Notes: generated by a model not told the origin, from the sequence alone. Shown: positions 1 through 36,916, counted from the stretch's first letter. The stretch: 41,745 bases of DNA from a bacterium (GCA_030697445.1 JAUYPY010000030.1:1-41745); one strand, 5' to 3'. Numbers and translations: made by a program.

Positions 1-1443
1 AGGACTCGCGTGTCGTACCGGCTGAAATGCCTCCTGCCTTCGCTCTTGCCCCCATTGTTGTTTCCGTTCCTGCCAATACCCTTTTCCGCGATTATCGTGT
101 GGAGGAACGTTCGGACGTCGGTCTGGAGTCGGCATAGGCGCAATAGGTGCGCTTGGAGCATGCCATACTTTTATTTTCTCTTCCACCACTGCGCGCGGAA
201 TCGCAAATTGCCGTCGCGATGCAGCAATCACTTGCGCCTTGAAACTTTCTTTCGGAGGCGCTATGGGAGGCAGAGTCGTTGCTGAAAACGGCGGCGAGGA
301 AATGCCGTCTATCATTAGTTTCAAGTAAATCTGCACAAAACCAAGATTCACTAAATCCTCCGCCAGAAATTGCGGAGCAAATTCTTTTTCCAAAAACTCC
401 GCATCGCGCGCACCGACACGGAATGTGACCATAGTGCCAATGTTACCGAACACGGCCGCGGCGACCTCCTCTTCCATTTGCTCAATGTATTGGTGCGCAA
501 TCGTGAGCGCTAGCTTGTACTTGCGCGCTTCGGAGAGAATGTCCGCAAAGCTCTTGTTCGCAAACGACTGAAACTCGTCTACATACAAATAACACGGGGC
601 GAGGTTTTTTGCTGCGAGCTCCGGCACATCGGCGCGCGACATCGCAGCAAGGTACATTTTGGTTACAATCATGCTACCCAAAAGCTTCGCATTCCCATCG
701 CCCACGAGGCCCTTGGAAAGATTGACGATAATAATTTTCCGCGCGTCCATCATTTGCCGTAAATCAAAACTGGATTTTTCCTGCCCGATGATGTTGCGTA
801 TGAGCGGGTTTGAGGTAAATTGACCGATTTTATTTTGAATAGCTGGAATTGCTTCTGCGGCAAATCGTTCCGTATATCCGGCGTATTCTTTTGTCCAGTA
901 TGTTTTAACGGATGGGTCGGTAATACGGGCGATGACTTTCTGACGATAATCCTTTTCTGCCAACATTCTGTTTACTCCAAGCAGTGTTGCTCCGGGATAT
1001 TCGAGAAGCGCCAAAATAGTGTTTTGCAACATATATTGCATTCTGTCGGAGAAACTCTCTTCGCCAAAGAGTTTTTTGAAGGCGCTCATCAGCCCGCTGA
1101 CCACGAGGTGCCTTTTTTCCGGACCGATGTCCTCCATTATGTTAAAGGAGACGGGGTGTTCCAAATCAAACGGCGCAAAGTAGAGCACGTCATTCACGCG
1201 CTCTTTCGGAATGTAATCCAAAAGCAATTCTGCCGACTTGCCGTGCGGGTCTATAAAAGCCAAACCGTTGCCGGACTGGATATCCTGAATCGCCATATTC
1301 TCAAGAAGCGTGCTTTTGCCCATGCCGGTTTTGCCGATGACATACATATGGCGCGAACGGTCTTTTTCTTTAATGCCAAACGGAATGCGCCTGCCGCGTG
1401 CGTCGGTTTGTGCGAAATAGGTAATTCGTTCGCCGGAAGACAT
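1..1443 (-). CDS. TraD/VirD4-like P-loop ATPase (T4SS coupling-protein / DUF87-type); C-terminus runs off the window
   Basis: Absent from the ORF track because it runs off the edge. My translation from the ATG at 1443 is open for 481 codons down to nt 1: MSSGERITYFAQTDARGRRIPFGIKEKDRSRHMYVIGKTGMGKSTLLENMAIQD... Walker A is GKTGMGKS. A Walker B-like motif is CYLYVDEFQSF, followed by KYKLALTIAHQY. Confidence 0.8.
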   Translation of the reverse strand, partial: MSSGERITYFAQTDARGRRIPFGIKEKDRSRHMYVIGKTGMGKSTLLENMAIQDIQSGNGLAFIDPHGKSAELLLDYIPKERVNDVLYFAPFDLEHPVSFNIMEDIGPEKRHLVVSGLMSAFKKLFGEESFSDRMQYMLQNTILALLEYPGATLLGVNRMLAEKDYRQKVIARITDPSVKTYWTKEYAGYTERFAAEAIPAIQNKIGQFTSNPLIRNIIGQEKSSFDLRQMMDARKIIIVNLSKGLVGDGNAKLLGSMIVTKMYLAAMSRADVPELAAKNLAPCYLYVDEFQSFANKSFADILSEARKYKLALTIAHQYIEQMEEEVAAAVFGNIGTMVTFRVGARDAEFLEKEFAPQFLAEDLVNLGFVQIYLKLMIDGISSPPFSATTLPPIAPPKESFKAQVIAASRRQFAIPRAVVEEKIKVWHAPSAPIAPMPTPDRRPNVPPHDNRGKGYWQERKQQWGQERRQEAFQPVRHASP

Positions 1444-9151: not shown

Positions 9152-9595
9152 TTATGCCGCAACCAACTGTCGGTCTGGTCGGCGGGTCGTCGTCCCCGCC
9201 CGGCGACCATTCGTGGAGCGCGCGAGGGCTTCCAGTTCCGCGTCCAAATCAATTTTTGGTACGGAAACAGAAGGCAGGAAGGAAGCGGTGGCAGGTGTCC
9301 ATGTCTTCAACTGCCCACACGCCTCATCGTACTCCGCCATTGTTCCCCACAACCACAATCCATCACGAGGCACAAAAACAACTTTTTGGCCTTGGTGAAT
9401 TGTTTGATTCTGGCCGGTCGCAAACACAATCCCGCCGGGAGCAGCCTCAACGCGTCGCAACTGACTCCAAAAGAGGCGTATTTCTTGACCTCCAGTCCCG
9501 TTTAGCACTGGGTCTGGCTGAACAAATGCCCATGTGCGACAACGTTGAACAACTCTGCCTGTTTTTACTGTCTCCTGCCGAATAGCAGTTTTCAT
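9152..9595 (-). CDS. hypothetical protein (147 aa), locally GC-rich
   Basis: Chosen over the overlapping plus-strand ORF. It has a correctly oriented terminator downstream and a TTGACT-N16-TATACT promoter upstream. No family recognised. Confidence 0.5.
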   Translation of the reverse strand: MKTAIRQETVKTGRVVQRCRTWAFVQPDPVLNGTGGQEIRLFWSQLRRVEAAPGGIVFATGQNQTIHQGQKVVFVPRDGLWLWGTMAEYDEACGQLKTWTPATASFLPSVSVPKIDLDAELEALARSTNGRRAGTTTRRPDRQLVAA

Positions 9596-10130: not shown

Positions 10131-11650
<1,520 letters not shown>

Positions 11651-11878
11651 AAATCTGTCCACAAAAAATTTGTAAAACAAATTTTGAACGGAACAAAAAG
11701 GAAGATTAGAATTTAATTTCGCTCTTTGGAATCAAAATACTTAATCACTAGGAATTTACTTTACTTGCACTTAACCCCGACAACCCGTCGGGATGTTCTC
11801 AATACTACTTCTTCAATTTTCAACGAACGCGCCCCTTCACAGGGCGTATCTGACAGTATATAGATACCGTAAAACAAG

Positions 11879-12781
11879 TCAACCCCGTGCCTGCCACTTC
11901 TCCACCGTAACCAAGAGCGGGCTCGCGATGCAGATGGAGGAATAGGTGCCGGCGATGATGCCGATAATGAGCGCGAGGGAAAAATACTGCGTAGAAACTG
12001 GACCAATGAAATACAGAACCACTAGCGCGATAATTGTGGTAAGCGAAGTGTTGATGGAGCGGCCCATCGTGGCGGCGACACTTTCTCCAACCACTGTTTC
12101 AAATGACTTGTTCTGGTTGAGTGTTTTGTTCATTCGCAAATGCTCGCGCACGCGGTCAAACACCACAATCGTGTCATGCACCGAAAATCCAAGTACGACG
12201 AGAAGCGCAGTTACAAACAGCGTATCCAATTCCACTCCAGCACTATGTCCGAGGTATGCAAACACACCGACCGGAATCAAGACATCATGCAAAAGCGCCA
12301 CAATCGTAATCACGCCATATTTCCACGACGACACGGGCTCCGACACTTTCCGAAACGCAAAGGTTATGAAAAGAACGATGCAGATAATCACGAGAGCAAT
12401 CGCCAAAAGCGACTTCAGCGCCGCTTCGCGGCCAAGCAAAGGCCCGATAGAATCAAAACGAACTTCGGTTGCCGCGTGCGCGCCGCCAAATGAAAGCTCA
12501 GTCAAAAGTGCACGATGCTCATCATCTGTAAGCTCGCGCAGGCGAATAATAAAACCACTCTCGCCAACGGAGCGCACCGATGCATATGCGTCAATCGGTG
12601 CAAGCACTTTCTCTATGTCCGTCTTTTCGGGCATACCGCTTGAATAATTAACTTCCAACAGCGCCCCGCCCTTAAAATCAATGCCGAGGTTCAGACCCCA
12701 CAACGCGAGCGCGGCTAGAGACGCGACAACGAGAATGCCGGAGACGATATAAAAGAATTTTCGGTGTGTTATGACAAACAT
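11879..12781 (-). CDS. secF: protein translocase subunit SecF
   Basis: 300 aa. LGIDFKGG, a multi-TM C-terminal half, and position immediately after secD. Confidence 0.9.
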   Translation of the reverse strand: MFVITHRKFFYIVSGILVVASLAALALWGLNLGIDFKGGALLEVNYSSGMPEKTDIEKVLAPIDAYASVRSVGESGFIIRLRELTDDEHRALLTELSFGGAHAATEVRFDSIGPLLGREAALKSLLAIALVIICIVLFITFAFRKVSEPVSSWKYGVITIVALLHDVLIPVGVFAYLGHSAGVELDTLFVTALLVVLGFSVHDTIVVFDRVREHLRMNKTLNQNKSFETVVGESVAATMGRSINTSLTTIIALVVLYFIGPVSTQYFSLALIIGIIAGTYSSICIASPLLVTVEKWQARG

Positions 12782-12786
12782 ATATT

Positions 12787-14106
12787 TTATTTAATTCCGC
12801 TTCCGAACAAAAACCGCGCGACGCTCCCGTTACTTTGCGTACCGAGTGCATACAAAAACATTCGCGATGCGGTGATTGCAGTGAACATACTTACGACGAC
12901 ACCGAATCCGAACACGAGCGCGAACCCGCGCACCACGGGCGTTGCGGCAAAGTAATACAAGATAATAGCCGTGATGATGCTAGAGGTATTCGAATCGCGA
13001 ATAGAAGGCCACGCGCGCGCAAAACCTTCTTTCAGCGCATCGGTAACTACTTTTCCTTTTCGCAATTCTTCTTTGAGCCGGGCGAAAATAAGAATGTTTG
13101 CATCTACCGCCATACCCATAGAGAGCACAAACCCAGCAATACCCGCCGCCGTGAGCGTTACCGGAATCAACTTAAAAATCGCGAGGTTCAGCGCCACATA
13201 CGCACCGAGCGCGAGAGTTGCGAGAAGACCGGGCAAGCGATACCACAGCACCAAAAACGCGGCGATAATGGCAAATGCCCATAGCCCCGCGCGCACGCCG
13301 GCAGCAACCGCTTCAGTGCCAAGCGATGCACCAATGGTCTGCACCGATGCAAGCGCGACCGGCACCGGAAGCGCGCCGTAATTTAGGTCGCGCACAAGCG
13401 TGCGCGCTTCTTCAATTTTAAAGTCGCCGGAAATCTCGGTACTGCCGCTTGCAATCTCTTCGCGAATCACCGGAAGTGAAATTGGCGTGCCGTCCAAGAA
13501 AATGCCAAGCGTCTTCCCCACATTTTCTTTGGTTAATTTTGCAAAAAGTTTCTCGCCTTCGCTCAGCCACGCGAGCACGACAACCGGCTCGCCTGTTGTC
13601 TGGTTGAACGAAATCGTGGCGCGGCTTACGAGCCGCCCCGTGAGCCCCGTGTCTGTAAAAAGCTCATCCGCTGTTTTCTTTTTAATTTCTTCTTCCGAAA
13701 ATCCAGACACATCTTTCATCAACTTAAACTCCAAAAGCGGGGTCTTGCCGATTTGCGCCGCTGCCTCCTTAACGTCCGTAATTCCCGGCAATTCCACAAT
13801 CAAACGATTCTCACCGGCGCCGAAGGCGCCGCCGCGCTCAACTTGCACAATTGGCTCAGATACGCCGAATAGGTTCACGCGCCGCTCCACCACATCGCGG
13901 AGCGACTTCATTGCGTTCGTTACTTCTCCAACGGGCACTGACTTGGTATCGGCGCGATACACAAGGTGCGCTCCGCTCTTCAAATCAAGCCCGAGACGGA
14001 ACGCAAACCGCCCGCCGCTCATTTCACTTTTATACACAAAAAACCCGACCAACGAGGCCGCAACAAAAATCACTATGGCGATTATTCTATGTTTCCACAT
14101 TACCAC
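12787..14106 (-). CDS. secD: protein translocase subunit SecD
   Basis: 439 aa. LGLDLKGG, periplasmic domain, and C-terminal TM bundle with DANILIFARLKEE. Confidence 0.9.
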   Translation of the reverse strand: MVMWKHRIIAIVIFVAASLVGFFVYKSEMSGGRFAFRLGLDLKSGAHLVYRADTKSVPVGEVTNAMKSLRDVVERRVNLFGVSEPIVQVERGGAFGAGENRLIVELPGITDVKEAAAQIGKTPLLEFKLMKDVSGFSEEEIKKKTADELFTDTGLTGRLVSRATISFNQTTGEPVVVLAWLSEGEKLFAKLTKENVGKTLGIFLDGTPISLPVIREEIASGSTEISGDFKIEEARTLVRDLNYGALPVPVALASVQTIGASLGTEAVAAGVRAGLWAFAIIAAFLVLWYRLPGLLATLALGAYVALNLAIFKLIPVTLTAAGIAGFVLSMGMAVDANILIFARLKEELRKGKVVTDALKEGFARAWPSIRDSNTSSIITAIILYYFAATPVVRGFALVFGFGVVVSMFTAITASRMFLYALGTQSNGSVARFLFGSGIK

Positions 14107-14152
14107 CGCATACTAGCGAAACCGCTCAAAAGAATCAAGAAATCAAAAGAAA

Positions 14153-14212
14153 TCAGCCGCTGCATGAAAGTTTAGTCATTACGACTATACCCTTTCACAC
14201 AAACGGCTGCTT
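14153..14212 (-). terminator. long imperfect hairpin followed by a U-rich tract, upstream of secD
   Basis: Nested pairs CAGCCG/CGGCTG, TGAAAG/CTTTCA and AGTC/GACT. On the minus strand the hairpin is followed by ATTTCTTTTGATTTCTT. Confidence 0.45.
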
Positions 14213-14316
14213 ATTCTTGCAATGGTGCGTGGCCTGTCACCGGACCCTGTGATTATCTCGACAGGATCGTATGTTGGTGGCTTTCGGCTTTCGCCTGTGG
14301 TCTCACGCCTCTCCGG

Positions 14317-14454
14317 TTATAACCCATAGTCGGTTTGTCCCGGTCTGGCTACAAAACCAACTATGGTTTTTTGTTCGCAAGAATTTTCTTTTGAGATGGG
14401 AAATTCGTCATCCTCCGCCTCAAAGAAATAATCTTCGCAGGTGTGCTTGAACAT
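14317..14454 (-). CDS. small acidic protein (45 aa), not in the ORF track
   Basis: My translation: MFKHTCEDYFFEAEDDEFPISKENSCEQKTIVGFVARPGQTDYGL*. AAAGGGGGTGA lies 5 nt upstream of the ATG, and a consensus-like promoter lies further upstream. Confidence 0.45.
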   Translation of the reverse strand: MFKHTCEDYFFEAEDDEFPISKENSCEQKTIVGFVARPGQTDYGL

Positions 14455-14479
14455 TCAAATCACCCCCTTTCTAAAATAG

Positions 14480-14508
14480 AGCATAACATACCCCATTCTA
14501 GAAGTCAA
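14480..14508 (-). promoter_or_regulatory. sigma70-type promoter (TTGACT-N17-TATGCT)
   Basis: On the minus strand, TTGACT is at 14508-14503 and TATGCT at 14485-14480. Confidence 0.55.
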
Positions 14509-14566
14509 TCCCCCCGTAATGTAGCAGTGGGTGGAATTGTCAAAAAACCCTTGTTTTGAGCCATAA

Positions 14567-14660
14567 AATCAAACTCCGCTCCTTGAAAGCAGAACCTTAA
14601 TCGTCTTCAGCGCAATTTTTACATCCAAAAAGAACGAGTGGTTTTTGATGTAGTACAAAT
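14567..14660. repeat. 94-bp direct repeat, copy A (orphan copy of the sugar-transferase 3' end)
   Basis: Identical base for base to 15250-15343: aatcaaactccgctccttgaaagcagaacc...gatgtagtacaaat. Confidence 0.95.
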
Positions 14661-14670
14661 AAAATGAAAT

Positions 14671-14934
14671 TTATTCTTTCACAGAATACTGATGAATGAG
14701 CGAACTGATAAAGGTTTGGTACGGAAGACCTTTTCCAGCGGCAACTGCTTTAATTTTGCTCAATGCCTTCTGCGATAAACGAATATTGATAGTACGAGGT
14801 TTGCTGAGTGTAAAGTTTGCATATTCCTTATAACGGCGTACTTCTTTTTGCGCACCCTTAACACGCTTGAGTTTTCCCGACTCAAATCTCATGAGGATGT
14901 TTTTTTCATCTTTGGTTAATATGCTTTTGTTCAT
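14671..14934 (-). CDS. brnA: BrnA-family antitoxin (RHH/CopG-like)
   Basis: 87 aa. RTINIRLSQKALSKIKAVAAGKGLPYQTFISSLIHQY matches the BrnA pattern. 4-nt overlap with brnT. Confidence 0.75.
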   Translation of the reverse strand: MNKSILTKDEKNILMRFESGKLKRVKGAQKEVRRYKEYANFTLSKPRTINIRLSQKALSKIKAVAAGKGLPYQTFISSLIHQYSVKE

Positions 14935-15209
14935 ATGTTTTTTTGAATATATTTCTTCGTCGCTTTTCTGCTTGGGATAATCGTCTTTAAAAAGATTTTC
15001 TCTTCATCTTCTGCGAAAGGAACAAGATAGACATAGTCATGCAGACGAATAACAAACAATTTCTGGTTTGGGTATCTTTTCTCGTTGGGATGCTGAACGA
15101 TATCAAGTATGTCTCCTTCTTCAATCGCTATGAGTATTTCTTCAAAACCAACTCCTCGTTCCTGTTTGAGCAAATCATTCTTCTCCAAATCCCAATCGAA
15201 ATACTTCAT
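14931..15209 (-). CDS. brnT: BrnT-family (DUF497) ribonuclease toxin
   Basis: From the ATG at 15209: MKYFDWDLEKNDLLKQERGVGFEEI...KTIIPSRKATKKY. This matches the DUF497 pattern FEWDxxKNxxNxxKHGVSFEEA...IISARKATKKE. Confidence 0.75.
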   Translation of the reverse strand: MKYFDWDLEKNDLLKQERGVGFEEILIAIEEGDILDIVQHPNEKRYPNQKLFVIRLHDYVYLVPFAEDEEKIFLKTIIPSRKATKKYIQKNI

Positions 15210-15249
15210 ATATACATTGTATACGAAACACGCACCAGTTGTCAATGTG

Positions 15250-15343
15250 AATCAAACTCCGCTCCTTGAAAGCAGAACCTTAATCGTCTTCAGCGCAATT
15301 TTTACATCCAAAAAGAACGAGTGGTTTTTGATGTAGTACAAAT
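15250..15343. repeat. 94-bp direct repeat, copy B (functional 3' end of the sugar-transferase gene)
   Basis: Identical to 14567-14660. Encodes the last ~30 codons and the stop of the 15252-16586 ORF. Confidence 0.95.
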
Positions 15344-16586
15344 CGTATGAGAGCTTCACTTTTGTTTCCGACACATTCGCACGGTAGTGCGGATGGTTCT
15401 CGTGATACAACTGTGCCCAGCCGGAAAGCCCGGGTTTGATGAGGTGTCGGATGTTGTAATACGGAATCTCTTTTTCATAGAGGCGCACAAGTTCGGGAAG
15501 TTCGGGTCGCGGCCCGATAAGCGAGAGGTCGCCGCGCAAGACATTCCAAAGTTGCGGTAATTCGTCTATGCGCGTCTTGCGCAAGACCTTCCCGACGCGC
15601 GTAATTTCCGCAGGGCCTCCTCCCGATGCAACGCACATACTGCGGAACTTCAAGGTCTTAATAACTTTTCCACCCTTCCCTATCCGCTCCTGCATAATGA
15701 AAAATGGGCGGCCGTTTTCTAAAAGCATGGCAAGAAATACTATAGGGTACAAAAGAAGTGACAACGCGCCAAGCGCGCCGGCAATTGCGATGTCCATTAG
15801 GCGTTTCAGCGTATCGTAAGTAATATTCGGCGCGGTGGATACATTTTCCAAAAACCAGTTGTAGCGCACGAGGGAAAGCGGAATCCGATTGAACATTTCT
15901 TCGTAGATTTTGTGCATATCTATGAAGCGCACGCCGGAAAAGATAAGGTTGTACAGGTGTGGAAGCACCGGCAAGATTTTGTCGCTCCGCAAATCAACGA
16001 CAATGAGGTAGATTCCTTCTGTATAGACGCGCTTCACAATCTCTTCTTTGAAATCCATACTACCGAGGTCTTTCGCATCAACAGAAGAAACGAATGAAAT
16101 GTTATAGTGCCAGTTGTTGTTTACTTCAGTAATGAGCTCTTTCAATTCTTCGCCTTCGCCGATCGCAATCGCCTTTTCGCGCTTCCACGGCGAAAGCATG
16201 GCGCTCCCGTAAATACGCCACAGGAGCATCAGCGGAAACGAAATAATGAGATACAAAAACAAGCTGCCTTTCGGCGTAATCTCAAATACCGGAAGAAAAT
16301 AAAAAAAGACGACCGCGAGTATGCTGTTTAAGAGGAGTGTGTTGAACAGCAAGTGCGGCAGGCGATGGCGTAAAATGACGGTCTGCTTTTCGTAAAGACC
16401 GGCGATGAAAAATACGACAATCCAGAGTATGAACAAAAAAAGAAACGGAAAGAGGTGCTCGGCAAAAAGGCCGCGCTCTGGAAGCGCGGCATAGCGAAAA
16501 AAGAGCGTCAACCACAAGCTCGCAGCAAAAACGAGAATGTCGCCCAAAAGGAGCGCAATGTGTTCCCGACTATTGAAGATATTCAT
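15252..16586 (-). CDS. polyprenyl-phosphate glycosyl-phosphotransferase (bacterial sugar transferase, WbaP/EpsL-like)
   Basis: 444 aa. N-terminal TM segments. C-terminal catalytic domain with RPFFIMQERIGKGGK, DELPQLWNVLRGDLSLIGPRP and PGLSGWAQ. Confidence 0.85.
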   Translation of the reverse strand: MNIFNSREHIALLLGDILVFAASLWLTLFFRYAALPERGLFAEHLFPFLFLFILWIVVFFIAGLYEKQTVILRHRLPHLLFNTLLLNSILAVVFFYFLPVFEITPKGSLFLYLIISFPLMLLWRIYGSAMLSPWKREKAIAIGEGEELKELITEVNNNWHYNISFVSSVDAKDLGSMDFKEEIVKRVYTEGIYLIVVDLRSDKILPVLPHLYNLIFSGVRFIDMHKIYEEMFNRIPLSLVRYNWFLENVSTAPNITYDTLKRLMDIAIAGALGALSLLLYPIVFLAMLLENGRPFFIMQERIGKGGKVIKTLKFRSMCVASGGGPAEITRVGKVLRKTRIDELPQLWNVLRGDLSLIGPRPELPELVRLYEKEIPYYNIRHLIKPGLSGWAQLYHENHPHYRANVSETKVKLSYDLYYIKNHSFFLDVKIALKTIKVLLSRSGV

Positions 16587-16640
16587 ATAACGATGGTTCG
16601 ATTACGCTAACCACGAGAGGTAGTATAATTAAAAAACCCA

Positions 16641-17819
16641 ATGAATACAACGACAAAAAAGAAGATTTTGTTCCTTGTCACCAAGGGAAATTGTGGCGGC
16701 GCACAGCGGTATGTGTTTGATGTTGCAACTGCTTTACCGAAAGAAAAATTTGAGGCAGTGGTTTATTGTGGAGAGGGAGATGCTTTACCTGAAAAACTTG
16801 CGGGTGCGGGAATACGATGCGCGCGCGTTCCGTCTTTGGGCCGCGAAGTCGGCTCTGCCGACTTCGCGGCATTCCGAGAAATTTTCCAACTTCTCAAAAC
16901 AGAACAGCCAGATATTTTGCATCTCAGTAGCTCAAAGGCGGCGGCACTAGGCGCGTGTGCCGCCGTACTTTATAAACAATCCCGACGCTTCGGTCGGGAC
17001 CCCGACCGCTTCACGTCGGGGCTTAAAACTATATTCACCGTCCACGGCTGGCCGTTTAACGAACCGCGTCCGTTTGTAGAGCGCGTGGCGATTTTTCTTC
17101 TCTCATGGCTTACAGCGCTCCTCTCGCACGAAGTTATCGTGATTTGCTCCGCCGACCGAAGATCGGCGGAACGGCTTCCCTTCATACACAAAAAGACGCG
17201 GCTCATTCATAACGGCATTGAACCATTTGCCGTGATGGAGCGGATTGTGGCACGCGAGGCGTTTGCGCCACACGCTTCCGCCGACACAGTGCTCATCGTT
17301 ACCATTGCAGAACTTACCAAAAACAAAGGGCTCGCACATGCGCTCCGTGCGGTTGCAACGCTTGCGCACGAACAAAATCTCCCGCCATTCCAATATGTGA
17401 TTATTGGCGAAGGCGAACTGCGCCAAGAATTGGAAAAAATAATTTCAGAAAAAAACCTTGCGAGTTTTGCGCACCTCGTGGGTTTTGTTCCTGACGCAAA
17501 AACATTGCTTTCCGGTGCCGATATTTTCATTTTGCCGTCGCTCAAAGAAGGTCTGCCATATGTTCTTCTAGAAGCTGGTGCGGCAGGCGTGCCAGTCGTC
17601 GCAACGAATGTCGGCGGCATTTCGGATATTATTTCCGATATGGAATCCGGTATGCTCATCCGAGCAAAACGCGAAAAAGAAATCGCTGACGCGCTTCGCT
17701 TTTTGCTCACCAATCACAAAAAACGCGACGCCTTCGGCGCCGCGCTCAAACAAAAAGTCTTCGCTGATTTTAGTTTTGAAAAGATGCTTGCAGCGACGAT
17801 TGCGGCATATGAATCGTAA
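16641..17819 (+). CDS. glycosyltransferase family 4 (GT-B fold)
   Basis: 392 aa. The C-terminal region PSLKEGLPYVLLEAGAAGVPVVATNVGG is the EX7E-type GT4 region. TATAAT lies 11 nt upstream of the ATG. Confidence 0.8.
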   Translation: MNTTTKKKILFLVTKGNCGGAQRYVFDVATALPKEKFEAVVYCGEGDALPEKLAGAGIRCARVPSLGREVGSADFAAFREIFQLLKTEQPDILHLSSSKAAALGACAAVLYKQSRRFGRDPDRFTSGLKTIFTVHGWPFNEPRPFVERVAIFLLSWLTALLSHEVIVICSADRRSAERLPFIHKKTRLIHNGIEPFAVMERIVAREAFAPHASADTVLIVTIAELTKNKGLAHALRAVATLAHEQNLPPFQYVIIGEGELRQELEKIISEKNLASFAHLVGFVPDAKTLLSGADIFILPSLKEGLPYVLLEAGAAGVPVVATNVGGISDIISDMESGMLIRAKREKEIADALRFLLTNHKKRDAFGAALKQKVFADFSFEKMLAATIAAYES

Positions 17820-17839
17820 AGAAACACCGTCACATCTTT

Positions 17840-18958
17840 TCACACCACCCCGACGAATTCGCTTTTTACCGACTCCTTCTGCGCCGAGCGCGCGTGGCGG
17901 CGCAGACCCATCACCATTCCAAGTGATAGAAACTCCATAAGCAAGTGCGAACCGCCGTAGGAAAGGAATGGGAGTGTTACGCCAGTCACCGGTAGGAGCC
18001 CGATATTCATACCGATATTTACTAGAAAATGCGCGGTGAAAAATACGGCGACGCCGAGCGCGAAGAGTGTCTCAAAGTTGGTTGCGCCAGCGTACGCCGC
18101 AACGAGCAGGCGCCACATCACGACACCGTAGAGCGCGAAGAGTGCGAGCGCCCCCGCAAACCCCCACTCCTCGGCAAATGCGGCAAACGAAAAGTCGGTT
18201 TGGTATTCGGGGAGAAACTTTAGGCGCGACTGCGTGCCGTACCCGACCCCCTTGCCGAACGCCTCGCCGGAACCCACCGCAATCATTGACTGTAGCGCGT
18301 TGTATCCGCTCCCGCGCGCGTCCGCAAGCGGATGGATAAAATTAATGACGCGCGCTTTCTGATAATCCGAAAATACAAAAAACCACAACCCCGCAAACGA
18401 GAGAGCGCCGAGCGTGAACACGAACGCGATGTGCTTTTTGGAAATTCCGGAAAGCGACACCATGCCGAGCCACACGAGAAAGACAATCACGGCGGAACCG
18501 AAATCCGGTTGAATCAAAAGAAGTCCGAACAGAAAAAGCGCATACGCGCCAGACACAGCAATGTGCCGAATGTGTGCAATTTCAATATGACGGCGAGAAA
18601 AATATTTTGCGAGAAGTATAATGAGCGCCAACTTTGCAAACTCAACCGGTTGGAAAGAAAATGCGCCAAAATCAAACCAGCTCTGTGCGCCTTTAATCGT
18701 CGCTCCAGAAATCGCCACTATGGACAAGAGCAGGACGGAAGCGAGATACGCGCCGAACGCGAAGCGCGTTCGGCGCGAAAAACGCCAGTCAACGAACGAT
18801 GCGGCAAAAAACGCGACGACTGAAATGCAGAGCCAGATAATTTGCCGAGAGAAAAAACGCTCATCTCCGCCAAACGATGCCAAAACCGAAAGCCCGGCAA
18901 GAGTAAGCGGGATCGTTGCGCCGAAAAGTATCCAGTCAATTGCTGTTCCTTTGCGCAT
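17840..18958 (-). CDS. SEDS-family peptidoglycan polymerase (FtsW/RodA)
   Basis: 372 aa, multi-TM. QPVEFAKL, IQPDFGSA and EYQTDFSFAAFAEEWGF motifs. Confidence 0.85.
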   Translation of the reverse strand: MRKGTAIDWILFGATIPLTLAGLSVLASFGGDERFFSRQIIWLCISVVAFFAASFVDWRFSRRTRFAFGAYLASVLLLSIVAISGATIKGAQSWFDFGAFSFQPVEFAKLALIILLAKYFSRRHIEIAHIRHIAVSGAYALFLFGLLLIQPDFGSAVIVFLVWLGMVSLSGISKKHIAFVFTLGALSFAGLWFFVFSDYQKARVINFIHPLADARGSGYNALQSMIAVGSGEAFGKGVGYGTQSRLKFLPEYQTDFSFAAFAEEWGFAGALALFALYGVVMWRLLVAAYAGATNFETLFALGVAVFFTAHFLVNIGMNIGLLPVTGVTLPFLSYGGSHLLMEFLSLGMVMGLRRHARSAQKESVKSEFVGVV

Positions 18959-18963
18959 ATAAA

Positions 18964-19722
18964 TTACCGGACGGCGCGCGCCGCGGTCAGTACTTCAGCG
19001 CGCACGGGAGTGCGCGCAAACGGCGCGCGCCATACAAAGGAAATTGGTGTGGGGGCACCCGCGCGGATCTGTTCCGCTATGGTCTGTGACGCTCCCACGG
19101 CGTTTCCATCTGCATCATATAAAATCGCAACGGCAGTTGCGCCGACTTGGCTTTTCAGTGCTGTTGTCAATTCTGCTTGAACGCGCGGTTGGGAAACGAT
19201 AGAAAATTGCAATCGTTCCACGCGCACGGCGTCCAAAGCCAACACATCGCGGCGCCATACAATCGGCGCGGTGCGCTCAAACGATGCGCGCACCGGTATG
19301 CGCTCGCCGACAAAAAGATTTGGGGCAAATACGGCGAATGTTCCATTGGGAGGAATGAGCGCGGTTACGCGCTTTTCTGCAACCAAAAGCCCGACAGAAT
19401 CATAGACCTTTACCTGATACGGCGCTTCAAAGGCACCGGCACTTTTATTCGGATTTTCTGCATATAACACTGCGCTCGCAATACCACCGCCTTCCGAAAA
19501 TACCCTTTGCCAAATGGTGCGCGGCTCGCCCGCTGTGTTCGGACAAAGTAGCGCGCACACGCCTCCGCAGTCCGTACCTGTTTCCGCGCCGTTTTGCCTT
19601 CCGTCAAAACACGAAGACCCGCGAATTGTGCGCGACAAAAATGGAACGCTGACAACCAACACAAAAAACAGCGCAACGATTCCGCCGTAGGTAAGTTGTC
19701 TTTTTCTAGCCCATGATAGCAT
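18964..19722 (-). CDS. membrane-anchored hypothetical protein with Cys-rich CFDGxQNGxETGxDCGG motif
   Basis: 252 aa, one N-terminal TM segment. TATACT ends 6 nt upstream of the ATG. Confidence 0.6.
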   Translation of the reverse strand: MLSWARKRQLTYGGIVALFFVLVVSVPFLSRTIRGSSCFDGRQNGAETGTDCGGVCALLCPNTAGEPRTIWQRVFSEGGGIASAVLYAENPNKSAGAFEAPYQVKVYDSVGLLVAEKRVTALIPPNGTFAVFAPNLFVGERIPVRASFERTAPIVWRRDVLALDAVRVERLQFSIVSQPRVQAELTTALKSQVGATAVAILYDADGNAVGASQTIAEQIRAGAPTPISFVWRAPFARTPVRAEVLTAARAVR

Positions 19723-19753
19723 GGGAATAGTATACTAAAAATCAAGTACTTTG

Positions 19754-19865
<112 letters not shown>

Positions 19866-19891
19866 GCATAATACTCGATACGAAAAAAATC

Positions 19892-19917
19892 AATCAATGG
19901 TAAAAAGCAGAACTAAA
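19892..19917 (-). other. 3' arm of a perfect 26-bp processing stem bracketing 23S
   Basis: aatcaatggtaaaaagcagaactaaa is the exact reverse complement of 24550-24575. Confidence 0.75.
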
Positions 19918-20047
19918 GGGTTACTTGTTTCCAGACAGGGTCGTCCGATTAGTACGCCTCGGCTAAGCGCATTGCTGCGCGTACACCTAGCGCCTATCAA
20001 CGTCGTAATCTCCGACGGGACTGATAACGATTCCTTATCTTGGGGTT

Positions 20048-20080
<33 letters not shown>

Positions 20081-20159
20081 GTTCCGAACATAGCTACCCG
20101 ACGATGCCCTTGGCAGGACAGCCGGTACACCAGAGGTCCGTTCATTTTGGTCCTCTCGT

Positions 20160-20930
20160 CACATATTCACTTATCACTAAGTGTGCAGACTATATCTTCA
20201 CCCTGCGTCGCTTCACACGAAAGCAGGGGTCGGCGTATTATGGCGCCTATTACAGCACCATCTTCATACCAACATGGTGTTGGTATTCCAGTCGTTACGG
20301 GGTCAAATCTAACATCTTGCGTAATTCTTTTTTTGTCTTTTTTTTCTTTGTTACATAATTCTCACCCTGAATAACAAGAATAAAACTAAGTATTCGCGTT
20401 AATTGCACCTTTGTAAGGCGTTGTAGTTCCGTGTTACTCAATAATTGAGCGGCGGAATAGAGCGCTTTCGCTTGTAATTTTTTAAATCGGATAAACGGAA
20501 GTAGTGCGTGTAGAATATCTCGCACCTGCTTGAAGCCGTTCACTCGCAGTTCTGTCATTCCGTCGTTTCTGCGACAAATGTATCCAATTCCAATTTTTTC
20601 ACGAATCCAATAGAGATCATGCTCATGCCGCGTGTCTTGATAAAAACACACGGTACACATAAATCTCTTTTTCAATCGCCCATCTTTTCTCTTTTTGATT
20701 TGAAGCATTAAGCTTCCATCTCCATCGAGAAAACCGGCGATATATGCAAGATCAGTTTTAGATCGACTTCCCACGGTATTGTCTTAATTATTTTCTGGTC
20801 CTCAAGTATATTGTACCATCGCTTTTGAACCATTCAAAGCGGTGGTTATCAACAGACCGAAAAAAACAAAGATTTCACCGTTATTAGCCGCATTGTCATC
20901 GCGAATTACTTCGCGAAGTAGCAATACTTT
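20160..20930 (-). mobile_element. group I intron (771 nt) in the sarcin-ricin loop, carrying a LAGLIDADG ORF
   Basis: The 5' exon ends in U (..CATTTTTAGT) and the intron ends in G. The joined exons give CATTTTTAGTACGAGAGGACCAAAATG, a restored helix 95. AAGATATAGTC J8/7-P7 motif. Confidence 0.8.
20295..20774 (-). CDS. single-motif LAGLIDADG homing endonuclease (I-CreI-size, 159 aa; GTG start)
   Basis: LAYIAGFLDGDGSLML motif, same strand as the rRNA, inside the intron. Confidence 0.85.
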   Translation of the reverse strand: MGSRSKTDLAYIAGFLDGDGSLMLQIKKRKDGRLKKRFMCTVCFYQDTRHEHDLYWIREKIGIGYICRRNDGMTELRVNGFKQVRDILHALLPFIRFKKLQAKALYSAAQLLSNTELQRLTKVQLTRILSFILVIQGENYVTKKKKTKKELRKMLDLTP

Positions 20931-21311
20931 ACTAAAAATGACTCCCCTCAAGAATCTGCGCCTGCAGTAGATAGGAGACCAACCTGTCTCACGACGGTCT
21001 GAACCCAGCTCACGTAACTTTTTAAATGGCGAACAGCCATACCCTTGGAAGCTTCTCCACCTCCGGGATAAGTTGAGCCGACATCGCTGTCGGATTTTTC
21101 TGCGATTACTCGCAGGATCGGACTATATCTTCATCCAACTTTTACAAGATTGGAGCTCGGTGTGTTAGCGGAAGTTAGAACTTCCACTCCATTCCTTTCG
21201 GAATAAGTCTCTACGGGGTCAATCTACTCATATTTTTTGGGTCAAATAATATATATTTGACAATTCAAAACGCTTATAGTATCTTTCCTCTGGAAATAGA
21301 GAAAGGATTCT

Positions 21312-21503
21312 ATGGAAAAAATTGTTAACGTTCTTCTCGCGTTTGGATTCGTTATCTTGTGGTTCGCCGTGTGTATCTTTATACTGTTGCTTCAGACTGA
21401 AATGTACAAAATCCTTATCAGGAAGTTGTCATCGCACATCGTTAAGAAGTTGCGACTAGAGGAAAGTCTCGCACTTCTCCAAAGCATGATCAAGAAAGAT
21501 TAA
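21312..21503 (+). CDS. small single-TM protein (63 aa) encoded antisense inside the 23S intron
   Basis: MEKIVNVLLAFGFVILWFAVCIFILLLQTEMYKILIRKLSSHIVKKLRLEESLALLQSMIKKD. GAAAGGA lies 4 nt upstream of the ATG. TTGACA and TAGTAT lie upstream, and a terminator lies downstream. Confidence 0.5.
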   Translation: MEKIVNVLLAFGFVILWFAVCIFILLLQTEMYKILIRKLSSHIVKKLRLEESLALLQSMIKKD

Positions 21504-21521
21504 CGAATTTTTATTTCTCAC

Positions 21522-21551
21522 ACACTCCCCTAAAAAGGAGTGTCTTTTTTT
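21522..21551 (+). terminator. intrinsic terminator of the intron-borne antisense ORF
   Basis: Arms acactcc (21522-21528) and ggagtgt (21537-21543), followed by c and T7. Confidence 0.65.
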
Positions 21552-22279
21552 CCCAAAAATCTGAATAGATGACTTCCCACGGTATTGTCCATATTTTACC
21601 ATACGGAGTCCACCGTTATAAACCAAGTTTTTTGTTCTGGCACACCAGCTCCTACACTGAATTGCCAAAACGGCTGAATACCATTGCTGGTATGGCACCC
21701 CGATGTGTTAAGGTGCCGAACTCCGCCGCCGATTAGGACTCTTAGGCGGAACTAGCCTGTTATCCCCGGAGTAGCTTTTAGCAGATGATCTCTGGCCGCG
21801 TCTAACGCGTACCATCGGTTCACTATGCCCCGCTTTCGCGTCTGCTCGGCTCTGACGCCTCACAGTTAAGCCAGCTTTTGCCATTGCACTATCGGCACGG
21901 TTTCCATTCGCGCCTAGCTGACCTTGATGGGCTCCTTTGTTACTTTTTAAAAGGATAGCGCCCCACTAAAACTGCCCCCCAGGTACTGTCTCTCGCGCGT
22001 TTGGCGCGCGAGGTTAGCATGCATATTTTTAAAGAGCGGTGTTTCATCGACGGATCCATCCCGCCCGAGAGCGGGACTTCAAATCCTACCGCCTACGCTA
22101 CGCATCAAAAAAATGCAGGCAATACCAAGATACAGTAAAGCTTCCGGGGTCTTTTCGTCTAACTGCAGGTAACCGGCATCTTCACCGGTATTGTATTTTC
22201 ACCGAGCGAGTCTCCGAGACAGTTGCCCAGACGTGACACTATTCAACGCGCGGGAACTTACCCCGCAAGGAATTGCGCT

Positions 22280-22486
22280 CTTCTATTCCTATAAAGAAGG
22301 ACTATGTCTTCATCCTTCGACTTCGTTCAGGATAAATCCCGAAGAAATCTAGGGAGCGCGGCGTATAGTCTCTTGGAGCCGCGTGTACGCTTTGCATTAC
22401 TGCAAAGTAAGGTAGCTTTTGCGTTTTCAACATCGGCATACAATCGTCCCAATCCTTTCCGAAACGAATTTTACTTCGCATCGGAA
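22280..22486 (-). mobile_element. ORF-less group I intron (207 nt) at the CCUAAGGU|AGCG site (about E. coli 1931)
   Basis: The 5' exon ends CGTCCTAAGGT, the intron ends ..AATAGAAG, and the 3' exon starts AGCGCAATTCCTTGCGGGGTAAGTTCC. GAAGACATAGTCC motif. Confidence 0.7.
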
Positions 22487-23970
22487 ACCTTAGGACGATT
22501 ATAGTTATCGCCGACATTCACCAGGGCTTATATCAGTCACCACTCCATCTTGCGACAAAGCAACGCCGATATTTGACCTTCTGGCATTGGTCAAGTGTCA
22601 CCCCCTATACATCCTCTTACGAGTTCGCAGGGAGCTGTGTTTTTGATAAACAGTCGCCAGGCAGACTTTAGTTGTAGCCCCTCTTGCGAGGGGCAAGCAA
22701 TATCCCTAAGTTACTGCTGCTTTTTTGCCGAGTTCCTTGGAGACCTCTCACTCGTTCGCCTTACTCTACTCGAGCTGACCACCTGTGTCGGTTTGCGGTA
22801 CGGTCGCGTCGCGTTTAATTTTAGAAGTTTTTCTTGAAAGACGGCTCCTTCAGATTTGCGATGGCCGAAGCCAACACATTTTCACAACGCTTGGAAATCG
22901 CATTGAAGCGAGGACTCCGGATTTTCCTGGAATCCTTCCTTATGTTGCAAACGACAAATCCAATAATGCGCCTGAAGTACTCATCTTCGTCACTTCGTCA
23001 AAACGCGCCGCGGTCACGGAATATTAACCGTGTGTCCATCGCCTCCGGCGTTCGCCATCGGCTAAGGCCCGACTAACCCTCCTCTGACAATCATTGAGGA
23101 GGAAACCTCGGTCTTTCGGCGTGCGGGTTTCTCGCCCGCATTGTGGTTACTTGTGCCAACATTCTTACTTCGCAACGCTCCACCGTGGCTCACGCCTTCG
23201 GCTTCACTGCAGATGCGAATACTCTCCTACCGCGCTCCGACTTTCTTGCGAAAGTCGGAGCACCCTCAGTTTCGGTACCATGCTTTAGCCCCGATCATCT
23301 TCGGTGCGGAATCTCTCGATGAGTGAGCTGTTACGCTTTCTTTAAATGATGGCTGCTTCTAAGCCTACATCCTCACTGTTTGAGAAATACCACTTCCTTA
23401 CGATGCACTGAGCATGGATTTAGGGACCTTAACTGGAGATCCGGGCTCTTCCCCTTTTGACCGGTGGAGCTTAGCCCCCACGGTCTAACTGCTGCGCTTT
23501 AACTTTTGGTATTCGGAGTTTGATAGGTTGAGCGGTCTTTCGACCTGTCCCGACCTTCCAGTGCTCTACCCCCAAAAGGAACACGCAACGCTAACCCTAA
23601 AGCTATTTCGGAGAGAACCAGCTATTACCAAATTCGATTAGCTTTTCACTCCTTGCCACAAGTCATCGCAGAGTATTGCACAGCTCTAGCGTTCGGGCCT
23701 CCCTTCGACTTTCGTCGAAGTTCACCCTGCTCATGGCAAGCTCATCTGGCTTCGGGTCCCAAAGAGAGAGCGCGTCCGCCTTGCGGCGGACTACGCGCTA
23801 TTAACACTCGCTTTCGCTACGCCTCCGCCCTTGTTTAAGGGGCTTAGACAAGCTCTCTCCCTGGACTCGTTGGCTCATTCTTCAATAGGCACGCTACAAC
23901 GGAGCAAGCTCCGCCGTAACTCTTTGTAAGCATACGGTTTCAGGTCTATTTCACCGCCCTCATCGGGCTG

Positions 23971-24010
<40 letters not shown>

Positions 24011-24549
24011 TTGAAAGATATTTAGCCTTGCCGGTTAGTTCCGGCGGATTCCCCCAAGGTATTCGTGTCTTGAGGTACTCAAGGACAAAGACAAGAAAGA
24101 TTGTTTGTTTTCGTGTACGGGACTATCACCCTCTGGGGTGCTTCTTTCCAGAAGCTTCCACTAACAAACGGTTTTGTAACTTTCCTCTCGATAAATCGAG
24201 ACATCTCTGCCTTACAACTGCACTTCGTTCTTGCGAACAAAATACTCTAGGCTTCTGCGCGTTCGCTCGCCGCTACTGACGCAATACCAATTGGTTTCTT
24301 TTCCTCCGGGTACTGAAATGTTTTACTTCCCCGGGTGTGCTCTCCGACTTTCGTCGGAGTCTCGCGGTTTTACTCGCGAGGGGTTTCCCCATTCGGACAT
24401 CTTCGGATCAAAGGTTGCTCGGCACCTCCCCGAAGCGTATCGCCGCTACGCCGCGTCCTTCATCGCTCTTTCAAGCCAAGGCATCCACCGTACGCCCTTG
24501 TTTCCTATCCGGAAACATGTAACCCTGCCCCGACTTTGCGTCGGGGCAT

Positions 24550-36115: not shown

Positions 36116-36916
36116 TTAAGACCTAAGGGGAACCTTCTTTGCTGAACGGGCGCCGTAAGACGGGTTGCAGCTGCCGGCATAGCTCCAGTAGAGGTAGACC
36201 TTGCGATAGCCCGGATGCCAGTAGCCGTACGCAACCTCGCCGCCGCGGAGACGGTCTTCTGGGAACCAAGTCCATGTCTCTGGATCTAGATGCTCTCCGG
36301 TAACGACATGATGCATGGTGTCTGCATCGCACCAGCCGAAGAGACCGAGCCAGAGTTTGTTCTGGATTTTGACGAGTTGGTCTGGACTTTTGGCGTAGTC
36401 GCTGAGGGTGTCGTCGTCTGGTTTGACAGAACGATTGATGAGGTAGAGTTCGGGCTCTTTCTGGCCTTTGCTGTTTGTGTACTTCATCACATCTGTCTCT
36501 TCGTATGGCTTGTTTTCTCCCATTTTCAGTTTCCATTCAATCGCATGGCGATTGGTGGCGCCTGCAGGACGGAAGGCGGGCATGAGGGTGGTGCTTGCGA
36601 GTTCTTCGTCCGTAAGGGAGAAGAGGTCTCGTAGTATCACTAGTTCTCCTATGAAGAACCTGTGGAGTTCCTCTCGCGCTTTAAGCCAGTCGGCGAGGGT
36701 GTGACCGGTGGAGCGGAGGGTGGGGATGTGCGGGGATTCCTCAATCTGCGTCTTCTCCTGTTTAGGAACCCAGCATGGTTCCTGTCTGTTGAACTTATTG
36801 AGTTCAGTGAGTACCTCTTGACCCTTTTCTCCGTTTAATTTCACGAAGAGGTCAGAAATCGGTCCCTGCAAGAGTACACGGAGCGATTCGTTGTTGCCGA
36901 GCATGCCGGTTTGCAT
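36116..36916 (-). CDS. DGR variable (target) protein, VR at C-terminus; no signal peptide seen
   Basis: 266 aa. The C-terminus reads RLRGGEVAYGYWHPGYRKVYLYWSYAGSCNPSYGARSAKKVPLRS. GAAAGGA lies 8 nt upstream of the ATG. Confidence 0.85.
   Translation of the reverse strand: MQTGMLGNNESLRVLLQGPISDLFVKLNGEKGQEVLTELNKFNRQEPCWVPKQEKTQIEESPHIPTLRSTGHTLADWLKAREELHRFFIGELVILRDLFSLTDEELASTTLMPAFRPAGATNRHAIEWKLKMGENKPYEETDVMKYTNSKGQKEPELYLINRSVKPDDDTLSDYAKSPDQLVKIQNKLWLGLFGWCDADTMHHVVTGEHLDPETWTWFPEDRLRGGEVAYGYWHPGYRKVYLYWSYAGSCNPSYGARSAKKVPLRS
36142..36255 (-). repeat. DGR variable repeat (VR), 114 nt
   Basis: 15 mismatches to the TR, all at TR positions that are A on the minus strand (plus-strand T changed to a, c or g). 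None of the 82 non-A positions differs. Confidence 0.9.

Follow-up and report, generated by a model that had tools for sequence, protein, structure and literature searches.

An antisense gene for a predicted small membrane protein in the P6 loop of group I introns of bacterial 23S rRNA genes

The window analyzed here, i.e. the whole stretch GCA_030697445.1 JAUYPY010000030.1:1-41745 (41,745 nucleotides (nt) of bacterial DNA), contains a 23S rRNA gene that is interrupted by group I introns. The intron located after position U2500 (L2500 intron) very probably carries, within the terminal loop L6 of its helix P6, a self-contained unit on the opposite strand that consists of a promoter, a leader, a gene of 63 codons and a one-directional terminator (Table 1). 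The gene is under purifying selection, and the P6 module that contains it has been exchanged between intron lineages. An initial annotation had described the locus as an intron in which an antisense mini-gene replaced the homing endonuclease gene and had likened it to a type I toxin-antitoxin pair. This last proposal is retained below as a tentative one.

The mini-gene and its expression signals

The open reading frame (ORF) of the mini-gene was open in six lineages, in which the protein measures 60-66 amino acids (aa). The frame contained no insertions or deletions (indels) within the close group and varied slightly in length at its ends in the distant lineages, whereas many indels were present in its flanks. 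Nucleotide differences inside the ORF were concentrated at third codon positions. The proportion of synonymous differences (pS) was 0.24-0.88 overall and 0.57-0.88 between distant lineages, which is near saturation; the proportion of nonsynonymous differences (pN) was 0.09-0.42, and omega was ~0.1-0.4. Because the frame stayed open in six lineages with synonymous sites near saturation and omega at these values, we regard the ORF as a genuine gene that is maintained by purifying selection.

The encoded protein is predicted to be a single-pass membrane protein in which a transmembrane (TM) helix is followed by a conserved basic amphipathic cytoplasmic helix, an assignment that shares the high confidence we place in the anatomy as a whole. 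The Kyte-Doolittle maximum over 19 residues was 3.0 for the window protein and 2.1-3.0 across the six lineages, and the net charge of the C-terminal part was +4 to +7. The strong TM helix and charged tail noticed initially recur in all six. The sequence of the TM segment was variable across lineages with its hydrophobicity retained, and the most conserved part of the protein was the C-terminal IRKLP-HIVKKL-L-ESL-MIKK region. AlphaFold2 predicted an all-helical structure for the 63-aa protein (predicted local distance difference test score 83), with a long helix spanning residues 2-38 and two short helices. Comparison with Pfam, NCBIfam, PHROGs, and PADLOC yielded sub-threshold noise only (MP_p6, E 0.11; XrtH_assoc, 16 bits with a cutoff of 35), and Foldseek found no match in the PDB better than E 5.

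In one of the homologous loci, L007 (3093-3174), and also in L008 and L009, the usual stop codon was lost and the mini-gene read ~20 codons through the terminator, resulting in a protein of 82 aa. The junction of the extended gene is a run of nine A residues, and one A fewer restores MIKKN-stop. The 82-aa form could be either a real extension or a homopolymer error common to the three assemblies.

The mini-gene is preceded by a promoter whose two boxes are 17 nt apart. The initial annotation had combined TTGACA with TAGTAT at a sub-optimal spacing of 14 nt; the 17-nt register with TATCTT is the better one and, moreover, is conserved in the homologues. TTGACA-N17-TAnnnT occurred a single time in the 41.7-kb window when both strands were considered, and 6 promoter-like sites were counted in a 5-kb region against 4.8 expected. 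Five lineages have TTGACA as the -35 box, and the sixth has ATGACA. At 17-nt spacing, the -10 boxes read TATCTT, TACCCT, TCCCCT, TAGTCT, TAATCT, and TAGTCT, and so conformed to TAnnnT in five of six lineages. The purine-rich leader motif was kept as AGAAAGG in all five intron-borne copies. The GAAAGGA sequence reported 4 nt before the ATG is present, but it cannot be a classical Shine-Dalgarno (SD) site in the window host because the 16S rRNA has no CCUCC anti-SD sequence. Downstream of the gene, the stem and T7 run that had been taken for a terminator were found at the positions given initially, and a hairpin plus U-run was kept on the plus strand in 6/6 lineages with differing stem sequences. 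Because no U-run follows the hairpin on the rRNA strand, the hairpin should not stop pre-rRNA transcription, and the terminator is predicted to work one way, i.e. on the plus strand only. The cassette proposed for the opposite strand thus proved to be a selected gene with a conserved promoter and terminator of its own.

Structure of the L2500 intron

Two large insertions were evident in domains V and VI of the 23S rRNA gene (truncated large-subunit alignment). Removal of the L2500 intron restored the exon junction GGCACCU-CGAUGUCGG, a conserved 23S sequence as in E. coli 2494-2509; the insertion site (U2500) is numbered after E. coli 23S rRNA. Within P1, the splice site is marked by a U.G pair, and the final intron base is the omega-G at 21087. 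The Rfam model Intron_gpI (RF00028) matched with 30.4 bits (E 6e-5) without reaching the gathering score of 50, and the alignment was good for the J8/7-P7-P9 part only, with the S element and P9 included. Sub-threshold RF00028 scores are usual for IA-type introns with large loops.

The core was compared across seven introns: L2500 and L2656 of the window, L2656 and L2511 of L001, L2500 and L1951 of L007, and L1951 of L004. All of them had the order P3, J3/4 (UWAUAA), P4 (CGGUG), P5, P4' (UACCG), P6, L6, P6', J6/7, P7 (GACU), P7.1/7.2, P3', P8, J8/7 plus P7' (AAGAUAUAGUC), and P9. In this alignment, which was built by hand from anchored segments and so leans towards structure, 95.9% of the cells of the core helices P3-P4-P6-P7 were paired, as compared with 35-44% in slid controls. 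P3 showed compensatory changes at five of its six pairs, and P7, P4, and the base of P6 were paired in 7/7 introns. Exon junction, P1, omega-G, and core covariation agree with the initial call of a 23S group I intron at 21087-21710; read from its sequence, the element is such an intron, and self-splicing is predicted.

The L2500 intron shares several motifs with its sister in the same 23S gene, the L2656 intron, whose ORF encodes a LAGLIDADG_1 protein of 159 aa (Pfam, E 2e-8). A 19-nt block is identical between the two at 19/19 positions, and the 19-mer GACTTCCCACGGTATTGTC had exactly two copies in the window (20765-20783 and 21571-21589; 0 expected). ACGGGGTCAA, which constitutes the 3' base of P6 and J6/7, likewise had two copies (at 20297 and 21213). 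GACTATATCTT occurred at 20188 and 21121, and a copy with one mismatch was present at 22300 in the third intron. These similarities, already listed in the initial annotation, are real and non-random, and the GUG start of the sister's endonuclease gene does lie within the block, with the stop within ACCCCGUAA. The block itself is not a relic of an endonuclease gene; it is conserved as part of the ribozyme core, namely the P4 3' strand and the base of P6.

In cassette-bearing introns, P6 was longer by ~19 bp (AUCUAUUCAGAUUUUUGGG / CCCAAAAAAUAUGAGUAGAU). Over four lineages, 97% of the cells of the 25-pair P6 helix were paired, with four compensatory pairs; the slid controls gave 27-62%. The G.U wobbles of the extension are valid on the intron-sense strand only. 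From promoter to terminator, the unit lies wholly within the terminal loop of this helix. Because of this location, the cassette is peripheral and the core fold is independent of it. The proposal of a genuine cassette was checked on three points on which it could have failed (lack of ORF conservation, a neutral dN/dS, and a need of the core for the cassette region), and it withstood all three. The LAGLIDADG gene of the sister intron and the L2500 cassette occupy the equivalent loop, L6. A like layout is known from the phage T4 td intron, an IA intron with its ORF in the P6 loop.

Table 1. Features of the window and insertion sites of the cassette
Feature	Position	Strand	Remarks
Mini-gene (63-aa ORF)	21312-21503	plus	N-terminal TM helix (residues ~5-28), basic amphipathic C-terminal region (IVKKL...MIKK)
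Mini-gene promoter	21257-21285	plus	TTGACA (21257-21262), 17-nt spacer, TATCTT (21280-21285)
Purine-rich leader motif	21300-21307	plus	AGAAAGGA, 4 nt before ATG
Intrinsic terminator	21522-21551	plus	7-bp stem (hairpin 21522-21543), then CT7
L2500 group I intron, IA-like, 624 nt	21087-21710	minus	23S, after E. coli U2500; junction restored, P1, omega-G, covariation
P1	21694-21717	minus	5' exon GGCACCU (21717-21711) pairs with internal guide GGGGUGCC (21701-21694); read from sequence
19-nt block	21571-21589	minus	GACAAUACCGUGGGAAGUC; P4 3' strand UACCG (pairs with CGGUG, 21615-21611) and 5' base of P6 (GGG..GUC)
P6 extension, 5' arm	21552-21570	minus	AUCUAUUCAGAUUUUUGGG
Terminal loop L6	21242-21551		Loop of extended P6
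P6 extension, 3' arm, and P6 base	21215-21241	minus	CCCAAAAAAUAUGAGUAGAU-U-GAC-CCC; includes ACGGGGTCAA
3' core	21121-21209	minus	P7 5' strand GACU (21209-21206), P7.1/P7.2 hairpins, P3 3' strand ACCGAG (21161-21156), P8 (21154-21134), J8/7 and P7 3' strand AAGAUAUAGUC (21131-21121)
Sister group I intron (L2656)	20160-20930	minus	After U2656, sarcin-ricin loop; LAGLIDADG_1 gene 20295-20774 in L6 slot
Third group I intron, ORF-less, ~200 nt	~22280-22478	minus	After U1931 of 23S; S element AAGACAUAGUC
23S rRNA gene, bacterial		minus	Rfam
5S rRNA	19754-19865	minus	Rfam; downstream of 23S
16S rRNA		minus	Rfam; 8 kb further downstream of 23S-5S
Cassette site U1951			L007, L008, L009, and L004
Cassette site U2500			Window
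Cassette site U2656			L001, L002, L003, and L012-L014

Distribution of the cassette and exchange between introns

Protein searches yielded two 63-aa homologues with 79-82% identity, and two distant ones were added by a HMMER search of the complete set of 1.84 billion representatives. The back-translated C-terminal motif, used at the DNA level, led to the L007-L010 lineage, which comprises the Parcubacteria metagenome-assembled genome (MAG) GW2011_GWB1_37_13 and JGI contigs. A point variant of the mini-gene was present on four further Hainich contigs. Peptide patterns of the N-terminal motif had no matches in GTDB genomes and JGI metagenomes, the back-translated C-terminal motif had none in viral contigs, and a more diverse profile retrieved no additional proteins. 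The protein family is thus very small and its distribution extremely sporadic, with 4 clusters among 5.8 billion proteins and 1 of 185,579 species genomes, and the carriers were groundwater contigs, one of them the Parcubacteria MAG.

The initial annotation had pointed to other rRNA introns as the place to look for the protein, and five of the six lineages indeed carried the cassette antisense in P6 loops, in introns at the 23S sites 1951, 2500, and 2656. In the sixth (L005/L006), the homologue was free-standing with its own TTGACA-17-TAGTCT promoter and a terminator, and the P6 arms were absent. Adjoining this homologue and convergent with it, L005 (~1084-1330, minus strand) shows the 5S-like motifs CCCAUUCCGAACAGAGAA and, as 3' strand, AGUAGGCAAUCGCCAGCAC, which are shared with the window 5S and have ~100 nt of extra sequence between them. 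Because Rfam makes no 5S call there, a location adjacent to a 5S gene is tentative.

In pairwise alignments, the 5' and 3' cores of the introns grouped by insertion site, with z scores of 4.2 and 14.5 for the L2500 introns of the window and L007 and of 16.2 and 11.2 for the L2656 introns of the window and L001. The content of L6, on the other hand, grouped by cassette at whatever site (z 27-56). Because the cores cluster by site but the module clusters by cassette, we concluded that the P6 module was exchanged between intron lineages. The mini-gene was absent from the L2500 intron of L007, the orthologue of the window intron. In the L2656 introns of the window and L009, an endonuclease gene was found in place of the mini-gene; the window's L2656 core is orthologous to that of the cassette-bearing L2656 intron of L001. 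The exchange most likely came about by recombination in the conserved core sequences that flank the module, namely P4'/P6 and, at the opposite end, P6'/J6-7/P7. Inspection of the sequence around the cassette revealed no target-site duplication or flanking direct repeat. Between the window and L001, nucleotide identity was 86.5% for the ORF and 85.9% for the 23S 3' exon. This near equality suggests a more recent origin for the module than for the split of the hosts and hints at horizontal spread after the hosts had diverged.

The initial interpretation was supported in part; replacement of an endonuclease gene is only one way to read the locus. The L6 slot is shared with LAGLIDADG genes. No LAGLIDADG, GIY-YIG, HNH, or His-Cys endonuclease ORF was present in the L2500 intron, and tblastn with four intron endonucleases detected no remnant in the cassette-bearing introns (all E > 0.2). 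Because of this, replacement is indistinguishable from insertion into an ORF-less loop.

The L2500 intron of L007 (~215-736, minus strand) has in its P6 loop an antisense unit (386-575, plus strand) in which a TTGACA-17-TATACT promoter and a hairpin plus T6 terminator enclose ~150 nt. Neither an ORF nor an Rfam match was found in this unit, and its fold scored no higher than that of shuffled sequence (z -0.9); it may represent the remains of a cassette or encode a small RNA.

Two candidates were rejected. A 172-aa "gene" that immediately precedes the homologue in L001, L002, L012, and L013 overlaps the 23S 3' exon and is an antisense-rRNA artefact. A 46-aa plus-strand ORF with a KIRRLP-like motif in another ORF-less intron of L001 (2905-3045) is low-complexity and T/C-rich, with no promoter or terminator. 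L001 (1-7349) represents one 23S 3' half with at least 5 or 6 group I introns, those at sites 2511 and 2656 included; one intron lies between the equivalents of window positions 20987 and 20992, two introns have LAGLIDADG_2 genes, and the mini-gene is present in one only. L009 (9133-9315, minus strand) has an insertion of ~180 nt in 23S domain II/III relative to the window, with a tRNA-like Rfam match at 9219-9293 (40.7 bits).

The rRNA genes of the window (10131-24511, minus strand) are unlinked and in an unusual order on one strand: 23S-5S, ~8 kb of protein-coding ORFs, 16S, and two tRNAs. The 3' end of the 16S (10131-10160, minus strand) reads ...GUGGAAUCAUUCAAGG, also read as ...GGAAUCAUUCAAGG, and lacks CCUCC; an anti-SD sequence was not seen between the 16S end and the tRNAs either when the sequence was inspected. 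Most of the long ORFs in the window have no SD site, and in many of them a TATAAT-like box precedes the ATG by no more than ~15 nt, a pattern suggestive of widespread leaderless mRNAs in the window host. The gene at 36116-36916 (minus strand) has AAGAAAGGA upstream, which is cassette-like.

Possible function, known relatives, and significance

The entire mini-gene is complementary to the intron portion of the pre-rRNA. Its transcription would run head-on against that of the operon with the heaviest transcription, and the resulting mRNA would be fully complementary to the intron RNA. We propose that RNA polymerase traffic and antisense pairing would hold expression down during rRNA synthesis, and that an increase would follow only from a halt in rRNA transcription or, after loss of the intron, from mRNA that survives. 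The logic would be that of a type I toxin-antitoxin pair. Introns without an endonuclease might persist in this way as selfish elements, or a membrane-active protein might be tied to growth arrest. A mechanism of this kind is plausible in that it would fit the shape of the protein, its complementarity to an abundant RNA, its carriage on a selfish element, and its sporadic distribution; we hold it tentatively and would grant it somewhat less than an even chance. The full version, in which the excised intron or the pre-rRNA acts as the antitoxin, the peptide is inversely coupled to rRNA transcription, endonuclease-less introns are stabilized, and spread occurs by swapping of the P6 module, we regard as unlikely in all its parts together.

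Several observations weigh against a toxin-antitoxin mechanism. The protein resembles no known type I toxin and no other family in Pfam, NCBIfam, PHROGs, or PADLOC. Conservation resides in the cytoplasmic helix (IVKKL, MIKK) and not in the TM segment, which points to a specific partner and not to generic membrane damage; this helix and the free-standing copy together argue against a simple pore toxin. The existence of the free-standing L005/L006 homologue also means that full antisense cover by an intron is not required. Only six lineages with the gene are known. The cassette has a leader of ~20 nt in a host with no 16S anti-SD sequence and apparently leaderless genes. Finally, because toxin gene and antitoxin would both disappear with the intron, addiction would require that the mRNA outlive the intron RNA.

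Some of the same observations would suit a passenger gene. Here the protein would have an ordinary cellular role exerted through its cytoplasmic helix, the P6 loop would be a tolerated site, the introns would be vehicles, and the antisense orientation would be an accident of a single capture. Such a gene could well have a free-standing homologue with its own promoter and terminator, be conserved most strongly in its C-terminal cytoplasmic region, and lack toxin homology, and the one P6 extension and one orientation in all intron copies fit a single origin. A useful host gene would not, however, be expected in just about six lineages, nor at a constant location inside or next to the rRNA operon, and its swapping among intron lineages and its age below that of the host split would be equally unexpected. 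The head-on position in an rRNA operon is a poor one for an ordinary gene. A passenger gene appears less likely than the toxin-antitoxin mechanism, but not by much.

The P6 arms might alternatively be the terminal inverted repeats of an autonomous mobile cassette similar to a miniature inverted-repeat transposable element, which would transpose into P6 loops. A near-perfect inverted repeat of 19-20 bp (19 bp in the window) does bracket the unit in every intron copy and travels with it, and the free-standing copy is without the arms. Yet no target-site duplication was visible and no transposase is present; the mismatches of the repeat are G.U pairs valid in the intron-sense RNA only and its changes are compensatory, as in a selected RNA helix and unlike a DNA end recognized by a protein. 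Moreover, the stem base AUCUA/UAGAU is common to the endonuclease-bearing intron, and the cassette-less L2500 intron has a related P6 extension, UUCAG...CUGAA. We consider a transposing cassette improbable.

Still less probable is an RNA product, i.e. a plus-strand transcript that regulates, by antisense action, the folding of the intron or the processing of pre-rRNA, or else a structured intron domain, with the ORF incidental. The transcript would match L6 by perfect complementarity, and in the orthologous L007 intron an ORF-less stretch of ~150 nt does lie between an antisense promoter and terminator. The L007 unit, however, folds like shuffled sequence and has no Rfam match, and the excess of third-position differences, omega of 0.1-0.4, the lack of indels, and the kept hydrophobicity show that selection acts on the protein. 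A chance ORF in a decayed endonuclease region with coincidental promoter and terminator look-alikes is hardly credible, for although single promoter-like or terminator-like matches are not rare (6 versus 4.8 expected in 5 kb), the frame was kept in six lineages at near-saturated synonymous sites, the positions of promoter and terminator were conserved while stem sequences changed, and no endonuclease remnant was detectable.

The toxin-antitoxin comparison draws on type I systems such as hok/sok, txpA/ratA, bsrG/SR4, and fst/RNAII. Likenesses are the small protein with an N-terminal TM segment and a charged tail, the mRNA overlapped by an abundant complementary RNA, and carriage by a selfish or mobile element that the protein could help to retain. 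The cassette differs in that there is no sequence kinship, a pre-rRNA intron would be the antisense partner in place of a dedicated small RNA, conservation lies in the cytoplasmic domain, and toxicity is hypothetical. Composite elements with non-endonuclease cargo inside a group I intron also include the fungal mitochondrial LSU intron that holds rps3 and the IStrons, which combine a group I intron with an IS200/605-type insertion sequence. In those cases, the cargo is read in the direction of the intron and is a ribosomal protein or transposase; among them we know of no promoter-equipped antisense gene for a small membrane protein that is swapped between introns.

Group I introns with LAGLIDADG genes, from rRNA genes of the candidate phyla radiation (CPR) and of organelles (PMC11270868) and including the L2656 intron of the window, belong to the same ribozyme family and have the same host gene and the same L6 cargo slot, and orthologous site-2656 introns hold either an endonuclease gene or the mini-gene. 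In contrast to their cargo, the cassette lies on the opposite strand, encodes no endonuclease but a membrane protein of 60-66 aa, is equipped with a promoter and terminator of its own, and has no means of homing itself. Antisense homing endonuclease genes are known in group I introns of nuclear rDNA, e.g. L2066 (PMC9548176), where a protein gene with its own signals likewise lies opposite the rRNA and intron strand in a peripheral loop. The L2066-type genes reside in the nucleolar rDNA of eukaryotes, code for endonucleases of the His-Cys box type, and have pol II-type signals and spliceosomal introns, whereas the cassette has a bacterial host, a sigma-70-type promoter, an intrinsic terminator, and a non-nuclease product. 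Tsurumaki et al. (2024, PMC11270868), who surveyed rRNA insertions in CPR genomes, classed 222 group I introns of 23S genes as ORF-less; they annotated ORFs by Pfam domain only and make no mention of antisense genes. Literature searches for group I introns together with either small membrane proteins or type I toxins found nothing relevant. As far as we found, a conserved antisense gene for a small membrane protein has not been reported as group I intron cargo and constitutes a new variant of such cargo.

In the usual view, homing maintains group I introns, and decay of the endonuclease gene leads to their loss. In the present case, the endonuclease slot is filled in antisense orientation by a non-endonuclease gene that is under purifying selection, is equipped with a promoter, and has moved among introns at three rRNA sites. 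Peripheral loops of introns in these groundwater bacteria can thus serve as exchangeable cargo sites, and introns catalogued as ORF-less, such as those of the CPR survey (PMC11270868), may conceal unannotated genes. The cassette offers a concrete system in which to study the persistence of introns that lack an endonuclease and the possible gating of an antisense gene by rRNA transcription. Should the protein prove to be a toxin checked by the intron RNA, this would be, as far as we found, the first addiction module borne by a group I intron, and it would provide an escape from the cycle of invasion, decay, and loss imposed by homing endonucleases.

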